From NCBI GenBank assembly GCA_965214605.1, contig OZ243961.1:2432001-2496000 (forward strand): a stretch of 64,000 nucleotides of DNA. Reading direction: 5' to 3'. The position numbers and the translations under genes are program-made. Shown here one piece after another: positions 19,679 through 61,119 of the stretch. The notes under the pieces were generated by a model. The model searched no databases and was not told where the DNA came from. It was given only the letters and a program-made list of their open reading frames with translations. How positions within the stretch are numbered: the first letter of the stretch is position 1; each line of letters opens with the position of its first letter. This DNA comes from an uncultured Candidatus Binatia bacterium (lineage in GTDB: Bacteria; Desulfobacterota; Binatia; Bin18).

Positions 19679-20929
19679 ATGGAAAGTCGTGCGCCGTCGC
19701 TTTTACCGGAACAGTTTGGGCCTCTGCAAGGCGTCCGGATTCTGTCAACTGGCAGTCTGATTGCCCAGCCGTATGCTGCAGCACTGGCGGCCGAGATGGG
19801 CGCGGAGGTCATCCAGGTCGAACGTCCGGGCGAGGGGGACGCCGCCTGGCGCCACCTGGGCATGCAGCTGCCAGCCATGGACGGCACCGACCAGGTCGCC
19901 ACTACCTGGATCCAGGAACGACGCAACGAACTGTATACAACCCTGGATTTCAGTATCCCTGAGGGCAAGCAGATCTTCCTCAAGCTCATTGAGGCGTGTG
20001 ACATCTGGATGGAGAGTTCCAAGCCAGGCTCGTACACCAAGTGGGGACTCACAGATGACGTGGTGTTGCAGACCAACCCCAAGATTGTGATCGCCCATGT
20101 ATCGGGCTACGGCCAGACCGGTCATGAAGATTATCTGGGCCGGGCGTCGTACGACATGATTGGTCAAGCCTTTGGGGGCCTGATGTTCCAGACTGGATTT
20201 CCCGACCCCGAACCGCCAGTCCGAGCTAACCCGTGGACCGCCGACTATATTACCGCCCTGTTTTGCCTGTGGTCGTCGCTGTCGGGCTATATCTACGCCC
20301 AGCGGACGGGCAAAGGACAAGTCATTGACATCTCGCAGTTTGAGTCTATTCACCGTCTCCTGTCGGGCACCATGGTCGAGTATTTTGCCAACGGCTTTGT
20401 ACGGGGCCGGTCTGGCAATAAGGCTACCGCGTTTCAACCCTACGACGCCTTTCAGGCCAGCGACGGATGGGTAGTGATCGGCGCGGTTGGGCTGGCCGTC
20501 TTCTCGCGCGTGTGCCAAGCCATTGGCCTTGATCCAGAGGACAAGAAATGGCAGAAAGCCAGCTCCGACGTGAATTCGATTGAGGGTATCGAGTTTGACG
20601 CTCTGTTGCGCGGCTGGGTTGCCGAGCGGACTGTGGCCGAGGTGGTTGAGTCCTTAAACGCCGTCCAGGTCGCTTGTTGCCCGATCATGAACAGCAAGGA
20701 TATGGCAGAAGATCCACACTACCAGGCCCGTAAGCTCCACATTGAATGGGAAGACGGACAGGTCGGGAAGGTGAAGGGGACCGGGGTGACTCCGCTCTTT
20801 TCGGAGACCCCGGGCAAGATCTGGCGCGGTTCGGTCCCCGTTGGGTATGACAATGAAACCGTCTATACCAACCTGGCCGGGTTGAGTGCCGAAGAGGTCG
20901 CTCAGCTCAAAGAGAAAGGGGTGATCTAA
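19679..20929 (+). CDS. CoA transferase family III (CaiB/BaiF)
   Basis: GPLQGVRIL, MGAEVIQVE, SGYGQTG, YDMIGQA motifs. Confidence 0.92.
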   Translation: MESRAPSLLPEQFGPLQGVRILSTGSLIAQPYAAALAAEMGAEVIQVERPGEGDAAWRHLGMQLPAMDGTDQVATTWIQERRNELYTTLDFSIPEGKQIFLKLIEACDIWMESSKPGSYTKWGLTDDVVLQTNPKIVIAHVSGYGQTGHEDYLGRASYDMIGQAFGGLMFQTGFPDPEPPVRANPWTADYITALFCLWSSLSGYIYAQRTGKGQVIDISQFESIHRLLSGTMVEYFANGFVRGRSGNKATAFQPYDAFQASDGWVVIGAVGLAVFSRVCQAIGLDPEDKKWQKASSDVNSIEGIEFDALLRGWVAERTVAEVVESLNAVQVACCPIMNSKDMAEDPHYQARKLHIEWEDGQVGKVKGTGVTPLFSETPGKIWRGSVPVGYDNETVYTNLAGLSAEEVAQLKEKGVI

Positions 20930-20961
20930 AGAGTGTAAAAGGCTCGGCATACCCCTGCTCG

Positions 20962-21115
20962 GTCGAGGTGCTGAGAGGCATGACATTTACGGTTGAACGC
21001 GGCAAGTTCTTCGAACTCCTCGGATCCAATGGGCGGGCAAATCGCCATGATCAATATTTTGCTTGACCTCATTCTGGCCGATGGCGGCTCAATTCGGGTG
21101 TTTGACACCGATTTT
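20962..21115 (+). pseudogene. N-terminal remnant of an ABC transporter ATPase
   Basis: VEVLRGMTFTVERGKFFELLGSNG/GKS then MINILLDLILADGGSIRVF; Walker A region frameshifted, rest missing. Confidence 0.65.
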
Positions 21116-21554
21116 GCCGTGCAGCCGGTCTCCACGCCCTATGTAAGGCTGGCTGCAGCCTTGACAACATGAACGAGGCGAGGGTGGTTCGTGAGAATTT
21201 TGGTGGGGGTATAGCCATATCTATCTCGACGACTTCGAGCAACAGCTCAATCCCTTCCTGCGACAGCTAGTCCCATCCGAAGGCGCGCATTGTTGAGCCT
21301 CCCGCTCAAGCACCCAAGTCTAGAACACGCGTTCATCGGAGGTCGTGCGGGGGGAACTCTAAGCACCTACGATACGGCACCATTTCCGTCACGCTCCGTC
21401 TTTCTCCTCAGCCTTAGTTTGGAGGGTGATGTGTAAGTTCTACTGTATCTGTTATCGGAGCCCAGACCGGATTTTCGATATCGTCTGCCGGCCGGTGATC
21501 TTGTTACTGTTGGAGGGGTTCATACCTACTTATGCCTTCTCAAAAGCAGTTCTC

Positions 21555-22302
21555 ATGAAGATAGAGGAGACAGGCCGTATATCCTCCGCACGCTCATAGG
21601 GTTGGGAAGACGGCCACCGTTTTTCATCTTTCGGTGGCACTGGCCCGCCTAGGCTATTCGGTGTTCCTCACCATCGCCATAGACCCCTAGGCGAATCTGT
21701 CTTTGTGCCTCGGACTCCAACATCCCAGCGAGGTGCGTAGGACAACCTCTGAGCCGGGCGTGTCCCTGATCTACGGGGACATCCGGCCGACCGCCCTGGA
21801 GCGAGAGATAGACAGAGTAAGGCATTCGCGAAGCTGACCTTGCGGCGATGTCTCAAACCACTGTCCTTGGAAGACACTCACAGCGTCCCGATCGACTGCC
21901 CCCTTCCCTGTTCTATTTGACCGTCTGAATGCGCTGGTCGCCTCACAGTACTGTCTGATCCCGTTTGTGTCGGGCTTGCGCTTCAGCTTTGAGGGTTTGA
22001 CTAGTGGAAAGCCTGATCGGCGAGCTCCAGGCCCACAACGAAGCCCTCATCCTTCTCGGCGTCCTGCTCAACGTGCACGACGGGCTGCAAGAAGATTCAC
22101 CAGGCCATGCTTGGCAGTATTCGCCAGAAATTCGGCCCGAAAGCCTTTGCTACGACCACTAGCCTCTCGGTCAAGATCGCAGAGACGAGCGCTGAGAGGG
22201 AAGTGGACATTCCAGCACGACAGAAAAAGCACGGGCGCGCGATATTTCATGGCACCGGGGGGAGAGGTCTTGAGCCGCCTGGGGCTGGCCCCGCTCATCT
22301 AG
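21555..22302 (+). pseudogene. ParA/Soj family ATPase remnant
   Basis: GVGKTATVFHLSVALARLG...IDP*ANL; IDCP; NALVASQYCLIP; LLGVLLN; KFGPKAF...SVKIAE...STGARYF, with stops and frameshifts. Confidence 0.8.
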
Positions 22303-22859
22303 GAGGTGGCGACTGAGGTTGAGAGAGGGCAAGCCCACTTCGACCGCCCTGTGCCCTGCCGGTAGGAGCCGCTTTTGTCTCTTTTCGGAGTACGTCCGCC
22401 CGAGAAAGAGTCCTCCGGTACTCCCCTAGATCAGAGTACCACTGGAGGGTCCTTCATATTATCCTACTTGGGCCCAACGGGTCGGTCCTCAGCCTTTGGC
22501 ACTGACGACCAACCCAAAGGCTCTTCGCCACAAGCAGCCATCCTGCTTGCACCGCGGCAATGGGAGGTTCGCCAGCTCCCGCAGGGCATCGCCGCGGATA
22601 GACCGGTTCGACAAATCGCCAATCGGCTCAGAGTCTCTATATAAAGGGGATAAAAAGGCAATTCGTGTCCCCAAGCAGGTCTGGGATGTTCAGGGCTTTC
22701 AGGTTGCCTTTGAGACAACGATAGAGGTCCGAAAGTGGGCATTCAACGAGGCGCGTGGAATTGCCAGACGTACCCCTACTAGTCCCAAACATTCAGGACC
22801 ATCCCGCCTCAGTATGTATGCAAGAAGAGTATATACACCAAGGCGACAGACCTAGCAGC

Positions 22860-23103
22860 AGAACTCCTCCAGGTCTGCCTTACCTTCCGAACTAACTGGA
22901 AGATTCGGGAAGTCACGCTCATTGTTGTTACCGGCTCCTCTCCGGGGAAATGGGCAAGACAGCTTTTCAGCTGCCGTTGTGGCGAGCGAGGAAGCTCGGG
23001 TAAGGAAGGATTGGCATCCGCAGTACGGATACCCACGTTTAAGCAAAACGGCACTCTACTGATTACCGTGCACGATATTAATACGCAAGTGCTAAGAGGG
23101 TAG
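22860..23103 (+). pseudogene. Possible DnaB-like helicase fragment
   Basis: GLPT..ELTGRFGKS/LIVV...MGKTAF across frameshifts resembles DnaB GvPTGF..LT.G....LII.AARPSMGKTAF. Confidence 0.4.
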
Positions 23104-23395
23104 GAGCCAAGATCAGGGCAGCAGGGCACCGCCTAGACCTCCCCGCCTTCCCCGACAGCCCACCCGAGAGAGGGCAGAAGTCTTCCGACGGCACTTGGCT
23201 GCCCCCGAGAAGTAAAACTGGGCAATTGACCGCGAGACTGAGGAGAAAATAGAGACCATGCGGGTAATGCTTACCTAGGTCGGAACGGACAAGCACCAAG
23301 CGATTCTGGTCCAAACCCGAATCGCAGCGGCGCAGGCTATGTTGGCGGTCGCTGCAAGCGTCTGAGGAGCTGAGGGTGTTATGGCACTAGCGGCC

Positions 23396-23766
23396 TCAAG
23401 CAGTCCTTCGAATGGTTAAGAAGACACGGCTGCCGAGCTGACGCAAGACAACGTCTACGGTAACGCCCTTCGTGGCATGGTCAGGGATTAACAACCGCTG
23501 CGCCTCGTTAGACTAGGGAGAAGGACGCATTCAGGGCGCTTCGCAACGGCGGGCGACCAGCGGCCACCCGCGCGTGGGTTGGAGCGGGACGGCGTGGCCT
23601 TTGCGGATCGTCGTCGCGAGCAGTTCCCGCAGGCAGTTCTTCGCCTCGGCCGACGCTTTCTCACGGATCACTCCATCAGCGACTCCCCACCCGGAGTCCG
23701 GAAATGTGACGACGAACCGGCCCAGCTGTGTTCTGTACGATTTCTGCAGGATAGTTGAAAGTGCAT
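23396..23766 (-). pseudogene. HicB family antitoxin remnant
   Basis: FNYPAEI..GRFVVTFPDSGWGVADG..EKASAEAKNCLRELL and C-terminal QRLLIPDHATKGVTVDVVLRQLG; frameshifted; no hicA seen. Confidence 0.75.
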
Positions 23767-24859
23767 GGTATGGGGCGCTACTCGTTCATGCAAACATGCA
23801 AATAATTTCACATAGAATGATTTGAGAACTAAGCAAAAATGTGTTTGACAAATTCACGATCAGTCTTCCAGAGAGACGAGGCGAAGCTCTCCTAGCCCCC
23901 ACCTAAATGGGGAGAGAACTCGGCTGCTTGCAGGCGGCTCTGTACTCCCATTTCAGCTTGCTGCAGACTCCTTGCTCCTTGCTGGCCTGCTGGATAGTTC
24001 TAGTTTCCCACTCCGTCAGAAGCACGCTCTAGGGCTGCGGCTACAGGGAACATTTTGGAAGCAGCTGTTCCTCCTGACGCTGCCAGCGCATTCCCTTCCA
24101 ACGTCAGGGGGTGCGTTCTTCGCAATTCCGAGGGCTGCGAGCATTGTGTTGAGGAGGGTCTTTCCTACTTGCTTTTTTCCAATCCTTAAACTGTGCTGTT
24201 CCGAGCGCTCCCATAGAGCGTCCCATGCGAGCCGAGTCTATGAATCATACCGACAGGCCCCTGGCTTGGCCCATTTCCGCGCGGGTTGGATGAATGGTCG
24301 ACCGGTTCCCGTCTGGCCCCCTGTTTCCTGCGGGCGAGGGTAGCCTTAATAGCCCTTGCTCGGGGGCCACTCTGCGTACAAAAGTGCGTTACCCTCTGTG
24401 GAGATAGGAAGTTGAGGAGTTGGGAGCAGATGATGCTCTCAGCCGTATTGATCCTAGGCTGACTGTAAGAATGGGGAGGTATTTACGTGATTTTTTCTGA
24501 CGGTTTCGTTCCCTCCCTGGGAAAAAAGTCCGTAAAAGCAGGGGAGTAGCAGGGGAGTAGCAGGATATACAACGTGTGATACAATACTGCTGAATTTGTG
24601 AGGAGCGGGTAAGGTGATTCGGTCAATACCTCCATCCTCCCGCCCACCTTCCCGAGTGCGCTACATCTGCGCTCCTCCCTGAGAAAGACGAAGCGTTCAA
24701 ACGACTCACTTGATGTTTTCAGCATGCCTTGCGCCAAGCCAAGAAGCGCAGCTTGCTCACGGGGTTTGAGAGAGCCTGACAGGTCGTCTCCCTAGCATTT
24801 TGCTGTTGGCATAGAGGGGGACGGTGAGGGCGGTGTCAAGGTGGGTGACCGGCTGCCCG

Positions 24860-25752
24860 GGCCGGCCAGCCCCAAGTTCCTCACGGACCCACCTCCCCTG
24901 GCTCCCCCCTGCTTCCCGGGGCGTCCGAGGGCTCTCCCCCACTATCCGGGAGCAGAGGCCGCCCCAGGCCGGCCTTCCGCATGAACAGGGGGCCGCTGAG
25001 GGGCTGGGTCCCCCCCCCCCCCACGCCCTTGGCAGGCTGTGGGGGCCTTCGGCAACGCTCCTGAGCCGGCCAGCCCCACTCCTCCCGCAACCGGGCCGGG
25101 CCGCTGTCCGGGCCGGCCCCCTGCCGGCCCTACCACGCCCGCCACGCCTGTGGCACCGTCCTCCGGGGGGGCTTCTCATGAGGCCCAATCGCCTGTCGTA
25201 CGGTTGCCCCGCCGCGGGTGGCGGGCAAAGGGGAGAAACAGGCGCGGGGCATCCAAGCCCCTAACTACCTACTTCCGTAAAGAGATATGGAGTCAGCCCG
25301 AGCCGCAGTTTAGAGGCGAGTACTATCAGTTTTCCAGCATTACCTCTTACCCGCCTCCTGTCCAACAGCCCCATCCACCACTTTGGGTTGGCGGAAATAG
25401 TAAACGGGCCATGCGACGCGTGCTGGAACTCGGCAATGGCTGGCAGCCCGGCTGGTCACGTCCAGAGCAGTTACGGCAGGAATTGGAAGATTTTGAGCGG
25501 GTGGCCAAACAGGTGGAACGAGACCCCAAAAGCATCGAGCTGTCCCTCATCCGTCCCCTTCAAATTCTCGATGAGGCCAAGGAGCCACACCGCCCGTTAA
25601 TCGGCATGCCTGAGCAGATTGCCGAGGATATTCGTGAATATCAGCGGCTTGGGGTGAGTCATTTGGTATTCAACTTTCGGACCAGCTACATATCTGAAGC
25701 GGTTGAGACGGTTGAGCGCTTTGCCACCGAGGTACGGCCGTTGGTGGCATAG
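24860..25752 (+). pseudogene. LLM class (F420-type) oxidoreductase with intact C-terminal half and garbled N-terminal half
   Basis: From about 25270: FRGEYYQF...PVQQPHPPLWVGGNSKRAMRRVLELGNGW...FATEVRP; the upstream GC-run region retains only traces. Confidence 0.7.
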
Positions 25753-25860
25753 TAGTGCCCTTTGACTCATCAAACACATATGGAAGAAGAGTCATGACGT
25801 TCTTTCGGAAGAGCGCCTAAGAGGTGATGTTGATCTATATGGTAGACCAAAGGCTTGGCT

Positions 25861-26190
25861 TATTAATCCTTCCGAAATAGTTGCCATCAGAGTGCAGCAT
25901 ACCGTCTCAGAGGATCCTTCAATCAGCTCTTCCCGAATGCTGGAAGTTTGTGCCCTCGCCGCAGATAGGAGACAAGCCTCGCTCGCCGCTCTTCTCGCGA
26001 AGTGAGGCCCTTCTGACCAAGGGCAGTGTGTTTCAGGTGGTCCCCCCCCACTCGTCAGGGGTGAGCTCGGGCGAATACGCCCCTAGATACTGCCGCGCAA
26101 GTCGACCACCCTCCTCCTAGGCAAATCGCTTCACCGTCTACGCCTGATGGATCGCAGGTTAGTCCCTGACAAGCAAAAGCGGTGCGCTCG
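25861..26190 (-). mobile_element. IS630-family transposase C-terminal remnant with probable right end
   Basis: LLLVRD*PAIHQA..YLGAYSPELTPDE..HLKH..LVSYLRR..KLP..RYAA matches the IS630 LPxYSPELNPDE region; ends in ...GGATTAATA. Confidence 0.75.
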
Positions 26191-26639
26191 ATACAAGCGG
26201 CGTGCGGCCCCCCTCCCGGGACCCGCGGGAAGCATCAGCCCCCCCCTCCCCCGCTGCCTCACCGAAGCAGAGCTGTGTTCCAAGACACGTTGTTGCCTCG
26301 GAGAATCCGCTGCCTTCCCCCGCCGTCCCGCTTCCGGCCGCTGCTGAGACGCCCGCCAGAGCGGCCGCTAGGCGCTCACTCCCCTCTGCCTCAGCAGCCG
26401 ACCTACCGAGCTCTGGCTCCGCCGCCCCCGCTAGGCCATCAGATCATGCCAGCGCCGCCGTCCCCAATGCACCAGGAAAATGCAACTGCCACCGACTCTT
26501 CCCAAGCCTCGGGGCTTCACCGCCACTTCATAGCCCGCGCCGCCACGTCGGCGGGCGCCCGCCGACGTGGGCGCACCTCGCGCTTGCCCCACCCGCCGAC
26601 ACGAGACCGCAACCCCGTGCGCCAATTCCCACCCCGAGC

Positions 26640-43795: not shown

Positions 43796-44330
43796 GTGCG
43801 TGCGTTGGTCGGTTTGGGGAATCTAGGCCCGGCTTATACAACACCCATCACAATCTGGGTTATCGACATACTGGTAGGACGATGGTGCATTCTGCTTGTC
43901 AGCAGCCCACTGCTATCTCTGATCGGTCAGGGATGCCGCTATACCCAGACCGTCCTGTTTGTCCAGCCCCGGACCTAGTATGAACAATAGCGGGGAAGCG
44001 GCGGGCTAGGTTTGGGATTTTTATGATTTGTCTGCGCCCGATTTCCTGGTCGTACACAATGACCTCGATCTGCCCGCGTGCCGTATTCCCGCCAAGCGGG
44101 ATGGGGGGGGGTGGCGCTGGTAGCAATCGGGGAATAGCTTCGATCATTGACGGACTTGGCAGTAAGGATTTTCCCTGAGTGAAGATCGCTGTTGGACGAC
44201 CTCAGGATACCACGCGCATCTCGCGCACCTGAAGGAGTATTTAGGTTCTGCATGGCGATGCACGCAGGGGATGCGGTCGAGGGGATGCTCGCACAAGGGC
44301 TGGAGCGGGCAATGGACAGGCTTAATCGGG
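43796..44330 (+). pseudogene. pth: Peptidyl-tRNA hydrolase pseudogene
   Basis: LVGLGN..HNLG; QPRT/MNNSGEA; VVHNDLDLP..GSNRGIASII..DFP*VKIAVGRP; GLERAMDRLN; multiple frameshifts and stops. Confidence 0.9.
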
Positions 44331-45288: not shown

Positions 45289-45741
45289 ATGGCCATGGAG
45301 ATTATTCTACAGGAAGAGGTCGCCAATCTGGGGCAGATTGGCGATATTGTTAAGGTCAGAGATGGCTACGCGCGGAACTATTTGCTGCCCCGTGGGCTGG
45401 CAGTTGAGGCAAACCGGCGCAATGTCCGCGTCCTCGAACATCACAAGCGTTTGGTGGCGGGCAAAAAAGAACGAGCCGAGCGCCAAGCCCAGGCACTCGT
45501 TGAACAGCTGTCCGCCTTGAGTCTCACCATACCAGCCAAGGCAGGAGAAGAAGGACGCTTGTTTGGATCGGTCACGAATATTGACCTTGAGACGGCCCTC
45601 AAAGAGAAGGGGATGAGCCTTGACCGACGGAGAATTCTCCTTGACGAGCCGATCAAGCAGGTGGGGTCATATGAGGTGTCGATCAATCTGGGCAACGCAA
45701 TGCGGGCAACTATTAAGGTTGAGGTCACTGCCGAATCCTAA
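45289..45741 (+). CDS. rplI: 50S ribosomal protein L9
   Basis: VKVRDGYARNYLLP, LFGSVT motifs. Confidence 0.97.
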   Translation: MAMEIILQEEVANLGQIGDIVKVRDGYARNYLLPRGLAVEANRRNVRVLEHHKRLVAGKKERAERQAQALVEQLSALSLTIPAKAGEEGRLFGSVTNIDLETALKEKGMSLDRRRILLDEPIKQVGSYEVSINLGNAMRATIKVEVTAES

Positions 45742-45801
45742 GCCAGTTCCCTCTCCTCGCTAAATGGCGCAACTCAAGGAAAGCAGAAGAGACGATTTTG
45801 C

Positions 45802-45873
45802 AGGCGCGTAGCTCAGTGGGAGAGCGCTTCCTTGACGCGGAAGAGGTCGGCGGTTCGATACCGCCCGCGCCTA
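45802..45873 (+). tRNA. tRNA-Val(GAC)
   Basis: AGGCGCG/CGCGCCT acceptor stem, CTTCC-TT-GAC-GC-GGAAG anticodon arm, GGTTCGATACC. Confidence 0.95.
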
Positions 45874-46002
45874 TGGTAATATACACGTGAGCACTGTAAC
45901 AGCGGTCTTCAGAGGACGCACGGGGGAAGGTTTTCCCACCGGTTTGGTCCGTTTTGCCTGCCTCAACCGCATGGCTGCTGCCCACGTGCCGGGAGGTGAG
46001 CC

Positions 46003-46515
46003 ATAGCTCGAGAAGCAGGGGTCCGGATTAATCAACAGATCCGCGCACGCGAAGTCCGTGTCATTGATGAAGGCGGAACCCAGATCGGCATCATACACTT
46101 AGCTGAGGCCCTACGTATGACCGAGGAGCGAGAACTCGATCTGGTCGAAATATCACCGACCGCCTCGCCTCCGGTTTGCCGAATTATGGACTACGGCAAG
46201 TACCGTTACCTGCAGAAGAAGAAAGCCCAGGAGTCACGGAAAAATCAAATCCAGGTGCTGGTTAAAGAGGTGAAACTCGGCTCCCGAACGAACGATCACG
46301 ATATTGATTTCAAGGTCAATAATATCAGGCGTTTCCTGGAGAAAAAGCAACGGGTCAAAGTGTCGGTTTTTTTTCGCGGTCGGGAGATTACCCATCCCGA
46401 GATTGGCAAGGAGCTGTTGGACAAAGTGTTTCAAAAAATTGAGGATATTGGGACGATAGAAAACCAGGCCCGTTTAGAGGGCCGCAATATGTCTATGCTC
46501 ATTGTTCCGAGGTAA
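46003..46515 (+). CDS. infC: Translation initiation factor IF-3 (non-canonical ATA start)
   Basis: GGAGGT RBS then ATA at 46003 in frame; RINQQIRAREVRVI, DLVEI, DYGKY motifs. Confidence 0.95.
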   Translation: MAREAGVRINQQIRAREVRVIDEGGTQIGIIHLAEALRMTEERELDLVEISPTASPPVCRIMDYGKYRYLQKKKAQESRKNQIQVLVKEVKLGSRTNDHDIDFKVNNIRRFLEKKQRVKVSVFFRGREITHPEIGKELLDKVFQKIEDIGTIENQARLEGRNMSMLIVPR

Positions 46516-46518
46516 GCT

Positions 46519-46716
46519 ATGCCAAAGCTGAAAACGTGTCGCGGGGCGGCCAAACGTTTTAAGGTGACGGGCTCAGGAAAGGTGCGGCGCTACCGTGCTT
46601 ATCGGCGCCATATTCTTTCTACCAAGACGACAAAACAGAAACGGCGGCTGAGGCAGTCCAATCTCGTCTCGACGGCTGATGAACGCGCGATTCGATACTT
46701 GATTCCGTTTCTGTAG
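46519..46716 (+). CDS. rpmI: 50S ribosomal protein L35
   Basis: [18 protein letters not shown]. Confidence 0.97.
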
Positions 46717-46730
46717 ACGAAGGAGAACAC

Positions 46731-47090
46731 ATGCCCCGAGCAAAACGCGGCTTCAAAGCTCGCCGCCGTCGAAAAAAGCTTCTCAAGCTTGCCAAAGGCT
46801 TCGTAGGGGGTCGCCGTCGTCTATACCGTCAGGCACGGGAAACGGTTGAACGCGGCTTGGTCTATGCCTACCGGGATCGCCGGGTAAGAAAACGTACCTT
46901 TCGGCGTTTATGGAACGTCCGTATTAACGCCGCCGCCCGTCTGAACGGTTTATCATACAGCCGTTTGATTCACGGCTTAACGCAGGCTGATGTTGCCATA
47001 GATAGAAAGATTCTGGCCGCATTGGCTGTTCATGATCCGGATGCTTTTGCTGCGGTTGCCAAGGTTGCCAAGGAACGTTTGGCTGCCTAG
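46731..47090 (+). CDS. rplT: 50S ribosomal protein L20
   Basis: [24 protein letters not shown] motifs. Confidence 0.97.
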
Positions 47091-47141
47091 GACGTGCTCT
47101 GCTACCCCGGCGGCGTTGCTGAGCCCGAGCGGGAGGCTGGC

Positions 47142-47429
47142 ATGACAAAAGCCGACATTGTTGAACGGATATACGAAGAAGTGGGATTTTCGAAAAAAGA
47201 GGCGACCGAGGTCGTTGAGTCGATTTTCGAAATTATAAAGACCCGTCTTGAAGAAGGCGAAAAAGTCAAAATTTCGGGCTTTGGGAATTTTGCTATCAAT
47301 GAGAAACGACCTCGCAAAGGGCGCAATCCTCAAACCGGAGAAACGATTGTAATCTCCGGTCGTCGGGTGCTCTCGTTCAAATCGAGCCCGGTACTGAAAA
47401 AGGCGCTGAACCCTTCCTATAATAATTAG
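47142..47429 (+). CDS. ihfA: Integration host factor alpha
   Basis: MTKADIV, KISGFGNF, GRNPQTG motifs. Confidence 0.93.
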   Translation: MTKADIVERIYEEVGFSKKEATEVVESIFEIIKTRLEEGEKVKISGFGNFAINEKRPRKGRNPQTGETIVISGRRVLSFKSSPVLKKALNPSYNN

Positions 47430-47436
47430 GTTTGTT

Positions 47437-47853
47437 GTGGAACAATCTGATTTACCCAACAAGCTCTATTTCCGAATTGGGGAAGTGGCAAAGATTGTTG
47501 GGGTCAAGCCATACGTCTTGCGTTATTGGGAGACGGAGTTTCCGAGTATCAAACCCGGCAAAACTCCATCTCGCCACCGTCTGTACCGCCGTCGTGATGT
47601 TGAGCTGCTGCTGGAAATCAAGCACCTCCTGTACGACGAGCGGTTTACGATTGCCGGAGCCAAAAAACAGCTCAAAGACCTTGAAAATTCCCCCCCTCAA
47701 ACTGCTGATACAAGCGTCCTCCAACCGGCCGAACGAACGGTCCAGCCAGCCGAACCGCCCAGTGCGCCTTCGTCTGAACAGCGCCAACTCTTACGCACCA
47801 TCCGTCAGGAGCTTCAGGCCTTGTACTCCGCGCTTGAACGCAAACTGGGCTGA
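47437..47853 (+). CDS. MerR-family HTH protein (ihfA-associated)
   Basis: YFRIGEVA..YVLRYWETEF..RLY..FTIAGA. Confidence 0.9.
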   Translation: MEQSDLPNKLYFRIGEVAKIVGVKPYVLRYWETEFPSIKPGKTPSRHRLYRRRDVELLLEIKHLLYDERFTIAGAKKQLKDLENSPPQTADTSVLQPAERTVQPAEPPSAPSSEQRQLLRTIRQELQALYSALERKLG

Positions 47854-59349: not shown

Positions 59350-61119
59350 CTACTCGGCGTCAGCCTGCCCCTGGAGCTCCTTCTCCGGAACATTTTCGTC
59401 GAGCTTGGTAAATAGCGGCGAGGGGTCCCGCAGAGCTTGCTGCGGCGGTAAGATCGTCGGCTGCCATACGCCCGTCGCTCCACTATGATCGTAGCGCAGG
59501 ACCAGGTGTGAACCCCGCCCGTCCTTGACCTTTTCGGTATACTGGCGACCGAACAGCTGTCCCTCATAGCCCAGCAGTGCGTGGAGCTGTTGACTGGTGT
59601 GGGGTAAAATAGGTGCCCACAGCAGCTTCAACCAATCAATGAGCTGGAGGGCGACATAGATCGTTGTCGCCGCTTGCTGGGAGTCGGACTTGATCGTCTT
59701 CCACGGCGCTTTGTCATGAAAATACAGGTTGGCCCGTTGACTGAGTCGGCGGACTGCATTCAGCGCCAGCTTGAGCTTGACCGCTCCGTACAAATCGCCA
59801 ATGCTCTGAAACCCGGCCTTGATTTCAGCCAAAACGGCCCGGTCGGTGTCGTCCAGCGGGCCCGGCTCAGGGACGAGTCCTTGGAAGCGGGAATTGGCAA
59901 ATCCCAGCACCCGGTTGACCAGATTGCCCCAGTTGGCGACCAGCTCATTGTTAACCCGTTCCACAAAGTCATCCCAGGTAAAGTCAACGTCGTTGCCCTC
60001 CGGTGCTATGGCGGTCAAGGCGTAGCGCCAGGCATCGGCTTGGTAGCGTTCCAGGGCACTGTGGATAGTGATGACATGGCCGCGACTCTTGCTGAACTTA
60101 CGGCCATACATATTGAGGTATTCGTTGGCCGGGACATCGTATGGCAGGTGCAGACCACCGTAGCCAATTAACATCGCCGGCCACATCATGGCGTGGAAGG
60201 GGATATTGTCTTTGCCGATAAAATAGTATGCCCGAGCGTCGGCGTTCACATTCGGGTCCCACCACTCACGCCATTTATCCGGTGTGTTATTCAGCTTGGC
60301 CCACTCGATAGCAGCGCTGAAATAGCCAATCACCGCATCGTACCAGACATAGATACGCTTATCCCCATAGCCGTCGAGTGGAATCGTAATCCCCCACTCT
60401 AAATCACGAGTGATCGGACGACCGCGCAATACCTCTTGTTCGACCTGGGTGCGGGAAAATCGGATGACGTTTGGCCGCCAATGCTTCTTGCTCTGTTGCA
60501 ACCAGTCTCGAAGCGCGGGCTGGAGCTTGCCAAGATCCAGGAAAAAGTGTTTGGTTTGGCGCACCTCGAGGTGAGTATTGCCAGTGATCCGTGAGCGTGG
60601 CTGTTTCAGTTCAATGGCCTCGTAGGTCCGGCCACAGCTGTCACACTGGTCTCCCCGAGCTTCAGGACTGTCGCAAAACGGACACCTGCCCTCGACATAC
60701 CGGTCAGGTAAAAAACGCCTGGCCTCGGGATCGTATAACTGCCGCTGGGTATCGGTGTAGATATAGCGTCGGTCCAGGTGCCGGCGAAACATCTGCTGAG
60801 TCACGTCCCAGTGGTTCTGGGTATCGGTGTGGGTGAACAAATCAAAGGTCAGTCCCAGTTTCTGGTAGCTTTCCACAAAGCCGGCATGAAAGCGCTCGAC
60901 TACAGCGGCCGGACTGCTGCCCTCCGCCTCGGCCCGAACGCTGACCGGCGTCCCATGCGTATCTGAACCACTCACCATTAAGACCTCATTGCCAATCATG
61001 CGCTGGTAGCGCGAAAAGATATCCGGTGGCAAATACGCGCCAGCAATATGACCGATATGTTGCTCGCCGTTAGCATACGGCCAGGCAACACCAACGAGAA
61101 TTTTCCGTGACTGGCTCAT
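59350..61119 (-). CDS. metG: Methionyl-tRNA synthetase (WPYAN/KFSKS, two-knuckle type, no C-terminal OB dimer domain)
   Basis: [20 protein letters not shown] knuckles, [19 protein letters not shown] motifs. Confidence 0.95.

Follow-up and report, generated by a model that had tools for sequence, protein, structure and literature searches.

Probable xenologous displacement of thrS and pheST from a conserved translation operon in one genus of Binatia

The gene cluster thrS-infC-rpmI-rplT-pheST-ihfA is present in Escherichia coli and many other bacteria, and the start codon of infC in E. coli is AUU. Aminoacyl-tRNA synthetases also occur as self-resistance copies in antibiotic clusters, such as ThrRS in those for borrelidin and obafluorin and IleRS in that for mupirocin. 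The concept of xenologous gene displacement accompanies a table of known synthetase transfers in sections of PMC2651853, and the 'homeoalleles' of aminoacyl-tRNA synthetases are described by Andam and Gogarten (2011; PMC3191353), who in one passage outline a pathway of insertion elsewhere in the genome, coexistence and loss of one copy, with rare genomes holding both forms. The archaeal-type phenylalanyl-tRNA synthetase (PheRS) of spirochaetes appears in passages of both sources (PMC3191353; PMC2651853, Table 1). Here we describe a locus within a 64,000-nucleotide stretch of DNA (the window; contig OZ243961.1, positions 2,432,001 to 2,496,000) from an uncultured Candidatus Binatia bacterium, in which thrS and the pheS-pheT pair are no longer part of the cluster. 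The native genes have very probably been displaced by foreign genes of the same function, that is, by xenologous gene displacement. Three findings carry this conclusion: the genes now present elsewhere in the genome match the lost ones in predicted function, they branch outside the host clade, and the native copies were ancestral and then lost.

The genome to which the window belongs (G000) comprises 4.37 Mb in 9 contigs, the largest being C1 (4.31 Mb), and is 99.99% complete. Between 42 and 51 kb the window holds one conserved block: prs, rplY, a broken pth, rpsF, rpsR, rplI, tRNA-Val, infC, rpmI, rplT, ihfA, a merR-family gene, dacC and groEL. Its central features are the following.

45289..45741, + strand: rplI (L9), open reading frame (ORF), the final gene 5′ of the tRNA; same-place counterparts in relatives are 61-92% identical
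45802..45873, + strand: tRNA-Val(GAC), by ARAGORN and Rfam (66.3 bits)
45874..46006, + strand: relic of thrS, its last ~43 codons, by tblastn, DNA alignment and BLASTP
46003..46515, + strand: infC (IF3) with an ATA start, from the sequence and from a Shine-Dalgarno (SD) sequence plus ATA at the homologous position in relatives
46519..46716, + strand: rpmI (L35), ORF with counterparts in relatives
46731..47090, + strand: rplT (L20), TIGR01032, 150 bits
47091..47141, + strand: rplT-ihfA junction of 51 bp, the site of pheS-pheT in most relatives, by locus comparison
47142..47429, + strand: ihfA (integration host factor alpha), ATG start; counterparts 3′ of pheT in relatives are 60-96% identical
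47437..47853, + strand: MerR-family regulator, ORF, 3′ of ihfA throughout the class

The gene for a D-Ala-D-Ala carboxypeptidase (dacC) and groEL lie 3′ of the merR gene. No thrS, pheS or pheT lies between the genes of the block, as judged from the ORFs and from the two gaps where they might be sought, 129 bp between tRNA-Val and infC (45874-46002) and 51 bp between rplT and ihfA. An earlier note, made from the sequence alone, had given these same distances, and they are exact (tRNA-Val 45802-45873, infC ATA 46003, rplT end 47090, ihfA ATG 47142); its statement that only the synthetases had been removed also holds, the block from prs to groEL being otherwise intact.

Is the split order old or new? 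Thirty relatives were compared, 7 of them from the same genus (g1), 11 from the same family, 1 from the same order and 11 from nine other families (f3-f10) of the class. thrS stands just upstream of infC-rpmI-rplT in 22 of the 30 and elsewhere in six, all of genus g1 (G001, G003-G007); in the remaining two it could not be placed, G012 having no rplT match and the locus of G026 being broken by a contig end. pheS lies 3′ of rplT on the same strand in 20 relatives, elsewhere in seven (six g1 genomes and G019) and at the old site on the opposite strand in one (G014), and it was not found in two (G003, G012). The tRNA-Val gene, detected by ARAGORN in 30 of 31 oriented loci, stands 5′ of thrS class-wide. 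The ancestral order in Binatia is therefore tRNA-Val-thrS-infC-rpmI-rplT-pheS-pheT-ihfA-merR, and the split order of the window's genus, which is also present in 6 further genomes of the genus including the single-contig G007, is derived. The earlier note had named an ancestral split order as the outcome that would undo its proposal, and the relatives point the other way. The distance between rplT and ihfA follows the same division, with 51-54 bp in 7 genus members, 40 bp in the congener G002 and 3.3-3.8 kb in relatives with pheST; the 51-bp junction of the window contains no recognisable pheST remnant.

Both synthetases are encoded elsewhere on the same contig, about 1 Mb from the operon. An intact thrS, the sole copy above the NCBIfam cut-off, is located at C1:3416636-3418441 (TIGR00418, 651 bits; cut-off 383.65), and intact pheS and pheT, each single above its cut-off, at C1:1087187-1090592, with trpS directly 3′ (pheS, TIGR00468, 273.5 bits, cut-off 237.45; pheT, TIGR00472, 483 bits, cut-off 402.65). 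This ThrRS shares 88-91% identity with its counterparts in the 6 genus members lacking an operon copy but 44-47% with every operon copy, among them that of the congener G002 (46%), in which the flanking proteins reach 77-91% identity to the window's (prs 90, rplI 77, IF3 83, L20 91, IhfA 91, GroEL 84). Its alignment with E. coli ThrRS (1qf6) begins only at residue 65 of the latter, so that the N-terminal domain is absent, and it gives no TGS match at E<=1, compared with the weak scores of 21.2 bits for the native enzyme of G002 and 23.6 bits for that of G009 (gathering score 22.2). The alignment with 1qf6, read with the residue numbers and roles of the E. coli enzyme, indicates that it keeps the editing motifs HxxxH (RHSCAH) and CxxxH (CRGPH) and the zinc-ligand motifs NCP.H, QDD.HIF and IH.AI. 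Judged from their sequences, the foreign ThrRS, PheS and PheT look functional and have the same function as the lost genes.

Where does this ThrRS belong? The best non-Binatia matches of a wide protein search are 53-55% identical, ~590-610 aa long and without a Pfam TGS domain; the nearest named relatives are a Planctomycetota metagenome-assembled genome (MAG; 53%) and cluster members of other matches, which are labelled Deltaproteobacteria and Rickettsiales. A scan of genome contigs yielded mostly unrelated matches of ~43% (Prevotella and others) and no donor. A FastTree phylogeny of 163 rows was built from 118 of 120 database hits, 14 of 80 named loci chosen for their taxa, 30 Binatia loci and the query, leaving out the remaining named loci (mostly Prevotella) and the partial copy of G026. 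In it the 23 native Binatia sequences form one clade (support 100) and the 8 foreign-type sequences another (100), within the TGS-less group, and an IQ-TREE analysis of 42 rows under the C20 mixture gave the same picture. Monophyly of the Binatia ThrRS was rejected by an approximately unbiased (AU) test (delta lnL, the difference in log-likelihood, 169.6; p 6.6e-6; 30 rows x 589 columns, LG+F+G4). Across the 56 genomes of the order, G000 included, the foreign type is present in 8 and the native type in 49, one genome (G051, of genus g8) having both and none lacking a match. The 8 holders are 7 of the 8 g1 genomes, G002 being the one without it, and G051, whose native operon copy is intact.

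In the window's genome the foreign thrS stands between a hypothetical gene and ldcA; htpG and ispF lie upstream of these, a PBP4B-like gene and mpl downstream. The context htpG-hypothetical-thrS-ldcA-PBP4B-mpl is identical in 6 of the 6 other g1 holders. In G002, which keeps the native thrS, a DAHP synthase gene lies between the hypothetical gene and ldcA (L135 6387-7520). A fragment of a Mutator-family transposase and an N6/N4 DNA methylase (L055 3309-4184, 8732-9700) flank the foreign thrS of G051, and the surroundings of this gene look like a mobile-element context.

The phenylalanyl pair tells a similar story with a different distribution. PheS is 87-92% identical within the genus, 76-77% to G014 and G019 and 39-45% to the operon copies; the corresponding values for PheT are 78-83%, 65-67% and 28-31%. 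In the wide protein search the nearest named sequences to the foreign PheT came from candidate division KSB1, Thermoguttaceae, Pirellulaceae and Thermogutta terrifontis (50-53%). In a FastTree phylogeny of 146 rows, 19 native Binatia PheT group with two proteobacterial outgroups and 9 foreign-type sequences lie among KSB1 and Planctomycetota-type sequences in a clade of 35 rows, with branches of 0.49 and 1.19 between the two groups; Binatia monophyly was again rejected (delta lnL 307, p 4.5e-40; 26 rows x 785 columns, fast search). The proposal that the copies elsewhere are foreign, and not vertically inherited, is thus borne out for both enzymes by trees and AU tests. Among the 56 genomes of the order, foreign PheT occurs in 37 (8 of 8 in g1, 28 of 28 in g8, and G019 of family f2), native PheT in 17, at 29-36% identity, both in none, and 2 give no match. 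In the window's genome pheST has as neighbours trpS, a CADD-like gene and genes for Rieske dioxygenase subunits. In each of the 28 g8 genomes a distance of 1.2-1.3 kb separates the foreign pheT from the native thrS, with the two genes on opposite strands, and in G014, the sole g8 locus examined in detail, the foreign pheST occupies the old site between rplT and ihfA in inverted orientation. In G019 the 839-bp rplT-ihfA gap holds a decayed C-terminus of the native pheT (residues ~652-786, at least 3 stops and a frameshift, E 5e-19). One g8 genome, G050, has a foreign-type pheT in two pieces with a stop at the join (C1:383245-385625), a frameshift or a sequencing error.

Contrary to the earlier note, removal of thrS from the operon was not clean: what fills the 129-bp spacer is, as judged by alignment, the end of the old gene, its last ~43 codons. 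Residues 597-638 of the native G009 ThrRS, the C-terminal end of the 638-residue query, match window positions 45875-46003 in a tblastn search of the whole genome, a match that is weak at that scale (E 0.42). Along its entire length the spacer can be aligned with the final ~130 bases of the thrS genes of G002, G009 and G011 (74% mean column identity), and its translation, GNIHVSTVTAVFRGRTGEG...AAAHVPGGEP*, is 42% identical to residues 608-649 of the G002 ThrRS, GDKEVTTQTVAPRGRKGER...AAVRVPGGAP* (pairwise BLASTP, E 1e-6). All 7 g1 genomes without an operon thrS retain the relic as an open frame of 126-129 bp. A dead ThrRS editing gene, also claimed from the sequence, was not found in the window, where the relic alone was matched by native ThrRS in tblastn at E<=1.

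Why has this end of thrS survived? infC has no ATG start, its frame opening at ATA 46003, 6 nt after GGAGGTG, and an SD sequence GGAGGTG plus ATA (ATC in one locus) occurs at the homologous position in most of 29 aligned related loci. Where thrS is still in place, its stop TAG overlaps the ATA of infC (ATAG), which suggests translational coupling, and the SD sequence of infC, GGAGGT, is formed by Gly-Gly codons of the thrS tail. The relic, too, has a terminal TAG overlapping this ATA, and the Shine-Dalgarno sequence GGAGGTG of infC lies within it. The deletion would thus have begun at the 3′ end of tRNA-Val and ended ~129 bp short of the thrS stop (codon about -43), and the tail would have been spared because the ribosome-binding site of infC and the overlapping thrS stop lie within it, their loss being expected to silence infC; in our inference, infC translation depends on the tail. 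A 1935-base contig from a sponge metatranscriptome library (X10), ~90% identical over 45289-46260, covers rplI, tRNA-Val, the relic and the start of infC, with a relic 3 bases shorter, as is typical of other genus members. This library contains a relative with the same arrangement; the contig does not prove a single transcript. As a side observation, it hints at relatives living in sponges and at transcription of the stretch.

Taken together, these genomes suggest an order of events in which a foreign copy would arrive, coexist with the native gene, as thrS does in G051, and be followed by decay of the native gene, as for pheT in G019, and finally by its deletion. On the simplest reading, foreign pheST would have entered the common ancestor of g1 and g8 and, again, the line of G019, and foreign thrS would have entered g1 after the split of G002, G051 having gained its copy separately. 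The foreign pheST lies inverted at the old site in g8 and beside trpS in the window's genus; since it is in situ in g8, the 51-bp rplT-ihfA junction of the window may have been left when the foreign pair, and not the native one, moved away. Several other synthetases of the lineage would have undergone the same process, with different donors.

Several points weigh against this account. The distribution of foreign pheST and metG (g1, g8 and G019) does not fit a single gain, because G019 falls outside the family on the species-tree proxy, (G019, ((G014, (G002, other g1)), other family members)), and a second transfer or a long coexistence is therefore needed. The proxy itself was built on only 11 linked proteins from the block (31 rows, 1978 columns), and many of its outgroup rows are less than half filled; all trees were midpoint-rooted only. 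No close donor emerged, the best non-Binatia ThrRS being 55% and the best PheT outside the Binatia-like sequences ~59% identical, and the donor phyla (Planctomycetota, KSB1, Thermoguttaceae) are named from a few labelled MAGs. Base composition gives no independent sign of transfer: GC content at third codon positions (GC3) of the foreign genes is 0.66-0.68, compared with a genome mean of 0.671 (sd 0.047, 529 long ORFs), and overall GC is also background-like, so that the transfers are not recent, which fits an old event. As for the relic, its role in infC expression is inferred: neither a promoter (simple consensus scan) nor an Rfam leader was found in it, and a consensus scan found no + strand terminator between rplI and infC, all three being weak negatives.

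Displacement is not restricted to Thr and Phe. Seven more synthetases of the genome were compared with those of the relatives (Met, Pro, His, Gly, Trp, Glu, Ser). metG, already singled out as odd in the earlier note, is of a foreign type.

59350..61119, - strand: metG, foreign (Caldilineaceae-like) type, from comparison with relatives and outside matches

This type of MetRS is present in 10 of 31 genomes at 72-100% identity (g1, G014, G019), with 30-35% in 20 others, and its nearest outside sequences are those of Caldilineaceae and other Chloroflexota, Poribacteria and Sumerlaeaceae (64-69%); its phyletic pattern is that of the foreign pheST. ProRS, of the archaeal-like family I, is found in all 8 g1 genomes, at 71% in G013 and 51% in G026, with no match in 19 of 31. 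The HisRS type occurs in g1 and G014 at 70-100% (31-39% in 20 others). The long-form GlyRS is 82-100% identical in g1 except G002, and in G014, 61-62% in G020 and G027, and 51-56% in 19 others including G002. For TrpRS, 14 of 31 genomes carry the type of the window's genome at 78-100% and 16 are at 40-49%, G017 keeping also a second copy at 37%. GluRS (64-79%) and SerRS (71-80%) are alike in all 5 genomes tested for each, and look vertical by this comparison. In all, 7 of the 9 synthetases tested, Thr and Phe included, exist as two divergent types within the order or class; for Thr, Phe, Met, Pro and His, the type in the window's genome is the minority one. One genus has non-majority types of at least five synthetases (those five, and probably also Gly and Trp). 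The apparent donors differ, which speaks for several transfer events rather than one. The lineage-wide replacement suggested earlier stands as far as two types exist for 7 of 9 synthetases, but it is not phylum-wide, thrS being affected in one genus and pheST in two genera plus one outlier. Nor do the displaced genes form an island, a possibility also raised from the sequence: they are spread over 0.3-3.6 Mb (serS 0.32 Mb, glyS 1.90, metG 2.49, proS 2.81, gltX 3.41, hisS 3.62), with pheS-pheT-trpS as the sole adjacency. In G014 we also observed a second, fragmented hisS of the foreign type (C1:1006417-1007504, three pieces of 57-79%, one with an internal stop) besides an intact copy (1460468-1461814).

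A further tRNA-acting enzyme has decayed in the block itself.

43796..44214, + strand: pseudogene of pth (peptidyl-tRNA hydrolase), in pieces in three frames, with several frameshifts and a disrupted GLGNPG..TRHN motif

Across the whole genome, pth was matched by no more than fragments (scores of 34.2 and 20.7 bits; cut-off 100), and no PTH2-type hydrolase was found. The gene called dead from the sequence is indeed broken in this genome, but the six other members of the genus that were examined have it as an open frame. At 317 bp, the gap between rplY and rpsF in G014 is too short for pth. Elsewhere in the window, ~20900-26200 contains only short ORFs without Pfam matches and a truncated luciferase-like monooxygenase (25039-25752), and this region may hold further decayed genes.

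What drove the exchange? One explanation, which takes up the pressure from natural products raised as a possibility in the earlier note, is that it was driven by compounds that inhibit synthetases, the foreign enzymes being insensitive to them. The points in its favour are indirect: the share of synthetases that switched, 7 of 9 tested, is unusually large, the apparent donors differ (Planctomycetota/KSB1-like for PheRS, Caldilineaceae-like for MetRS), a sponge library contains the ~90% identical contig of the locus, and antibiotic selection on synthetase homeoalleles is raised in a reviewer exchange printed with PMC3191353. However, thrS and pheST are each single in the genome, the foreign genes lie next to housekeeping or catabolic genes (peptidoglycan recycling, aromatic oxygenases) and not to biosynthetic clusters, and neutral turnover by biased transfer and stochastic loss, as set out in a part of PMC3191353, explains the pattern equally well. 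We regard this driver as unlikely. In a broader form, a burst of turnover in tRNA charging would have been selected, for example by inhibitors in a host-associated, possibly sponge, habitat, with inhibitor-insensitive foreign enzymes; this reading draws on the at least five exchanged synthetases, on the N-terminal loss in ThrRS and on a decayed pth for which no substitute was recognised, and we consider it doubtful. A search of the literature on natural-product self-resistance, at the level of the records listed, gave nothing specific to ThrRS or PheRS replacement.

Displacement by foreign genes has also to be weighed against ancient paralogy, in which both types would have been present in an early Binatia ancestor and lost differentially. 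This would accommodate the two genomes that hold two types now (G051 for ThrRS, G017 for TrpRS), the pattern of foreign pheST and metG (g1, g8, G019), which is no single clade on the species-tree proxy, and the complete amelioration of the foreign genes. But the foreign ThrRS and PheT nest among other phyla and not beside the native Binatia clade, the AU tests reject one Binatia clade, and no genome among 54 has both PheT types. The foreign types of ThrRS, PheS and MetRS are absent from all 11 relatives of the nine other families, so paralogy needs many parallel losses, and we judge it very improbable.

A metagenome assembly or binning artefact, with synthetase genes from another organism or chimeric junctions, deserves mention given that the genome is a MAG, but it is hardly credible. 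Every gene sits on the single contig C1, the arrangement is repeated in 6 other genomes, the single-contig G007 among them, and the foreign pheST is found also in the single-contig G002. Run X1, which may be the source sample, supplies a contig with 0 differences over 45827-47429, and contigs of run X5, from a study other than that of the best holders of the sequence, span tRNA-Val and the spacer (45827-45972) and rplT/ihfA (46719-47429), again with 0 differences, so that both junctions are bridged independently; contigs of run X6 did not bridge the rplT/ihfA junction. Finally, simple rearrangement of the native genes followed by rapid divergence, to which the presence of each gene once elsewhere on the same chromosome might point, can be set aside, because ThrRS is so much less similar between the window's genome and G002 (46%) than the flanking proteins (77-91%), the relocated ThrRS lacks the N-terminal TGS region, the relocated types are nearer to other phyla than to native Binatia copies, the native thrS relic is still in place, and the trees and AU tests contradict it.

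Horizontal replacement of synthetases is well established, as a rule from deep trees, and what we describe is a known kind of event. Its special features are the resolved stages, the relic with the start signals of the next gene, the inverted in-situ pheST and the number of synthetases. All stages are visible here within one order, in 56 genomes: an intact operon, both thrS types in one genome, a decaying native pheT, an inverted foreign pheST in the old site and a finished deletion that spared 129 bp. A narrow literature search found no printed account of synthetase replacement in Binatota. The lineage is a natural system for how an essential, operon-embedded gene is exchanged and what limits its deletion and, with 7 of 9 synthetases affected, a place to test neutral against selected turnover.

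How does the locus compare with the systems described before? The gene order of the E. coli-type cluster is found in 20-22 of the 30 Binatia relatives, and the infC start is non-canonical in both; in Binatia, by contrast, infC starts with ATA, the thrS stop overlaps the infC start and a tRNA-Val gene stands 5′ of thrS, and the window's genus lacks both synthetase genes in the operon. Self-resistance copies are likewise divergent, foreign-type synthetases, but they are extra genes beside biosynthetic ones in genomes that keep the housekeeping gene, whereas here the foreign gene is the sole copy among ordinary neighbours: the genome has one thrS, one pheS and one pheT above the cut-offs, and, judged from the adjacent genes, they do not lie in or beside a biosynthetic cluster. 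With the spirochaete PheRS the Binatia case shares the replacement of both subunits by a foreign pair, although its donor type is bacterial (KSB1/Planctomycetota-like), the event is shallow (genus to family) and relics and in-situ forms are visible. As in homeoalleles, two divergent genes of the same function alternate among close relatives, usually one per genome. The rare genomes with two types are read as a transition state, and the Binatia replacement follows the first pathway in the part of PMC3191353 that describes them. It differs from homeoalleles in that at least five synthetases are involved in one genus, that the native genes stood inside a conserved translation operon, that a functional-looking remnant is retained and that, in the sister genus, the foreign pheST lies inverted at the old site.

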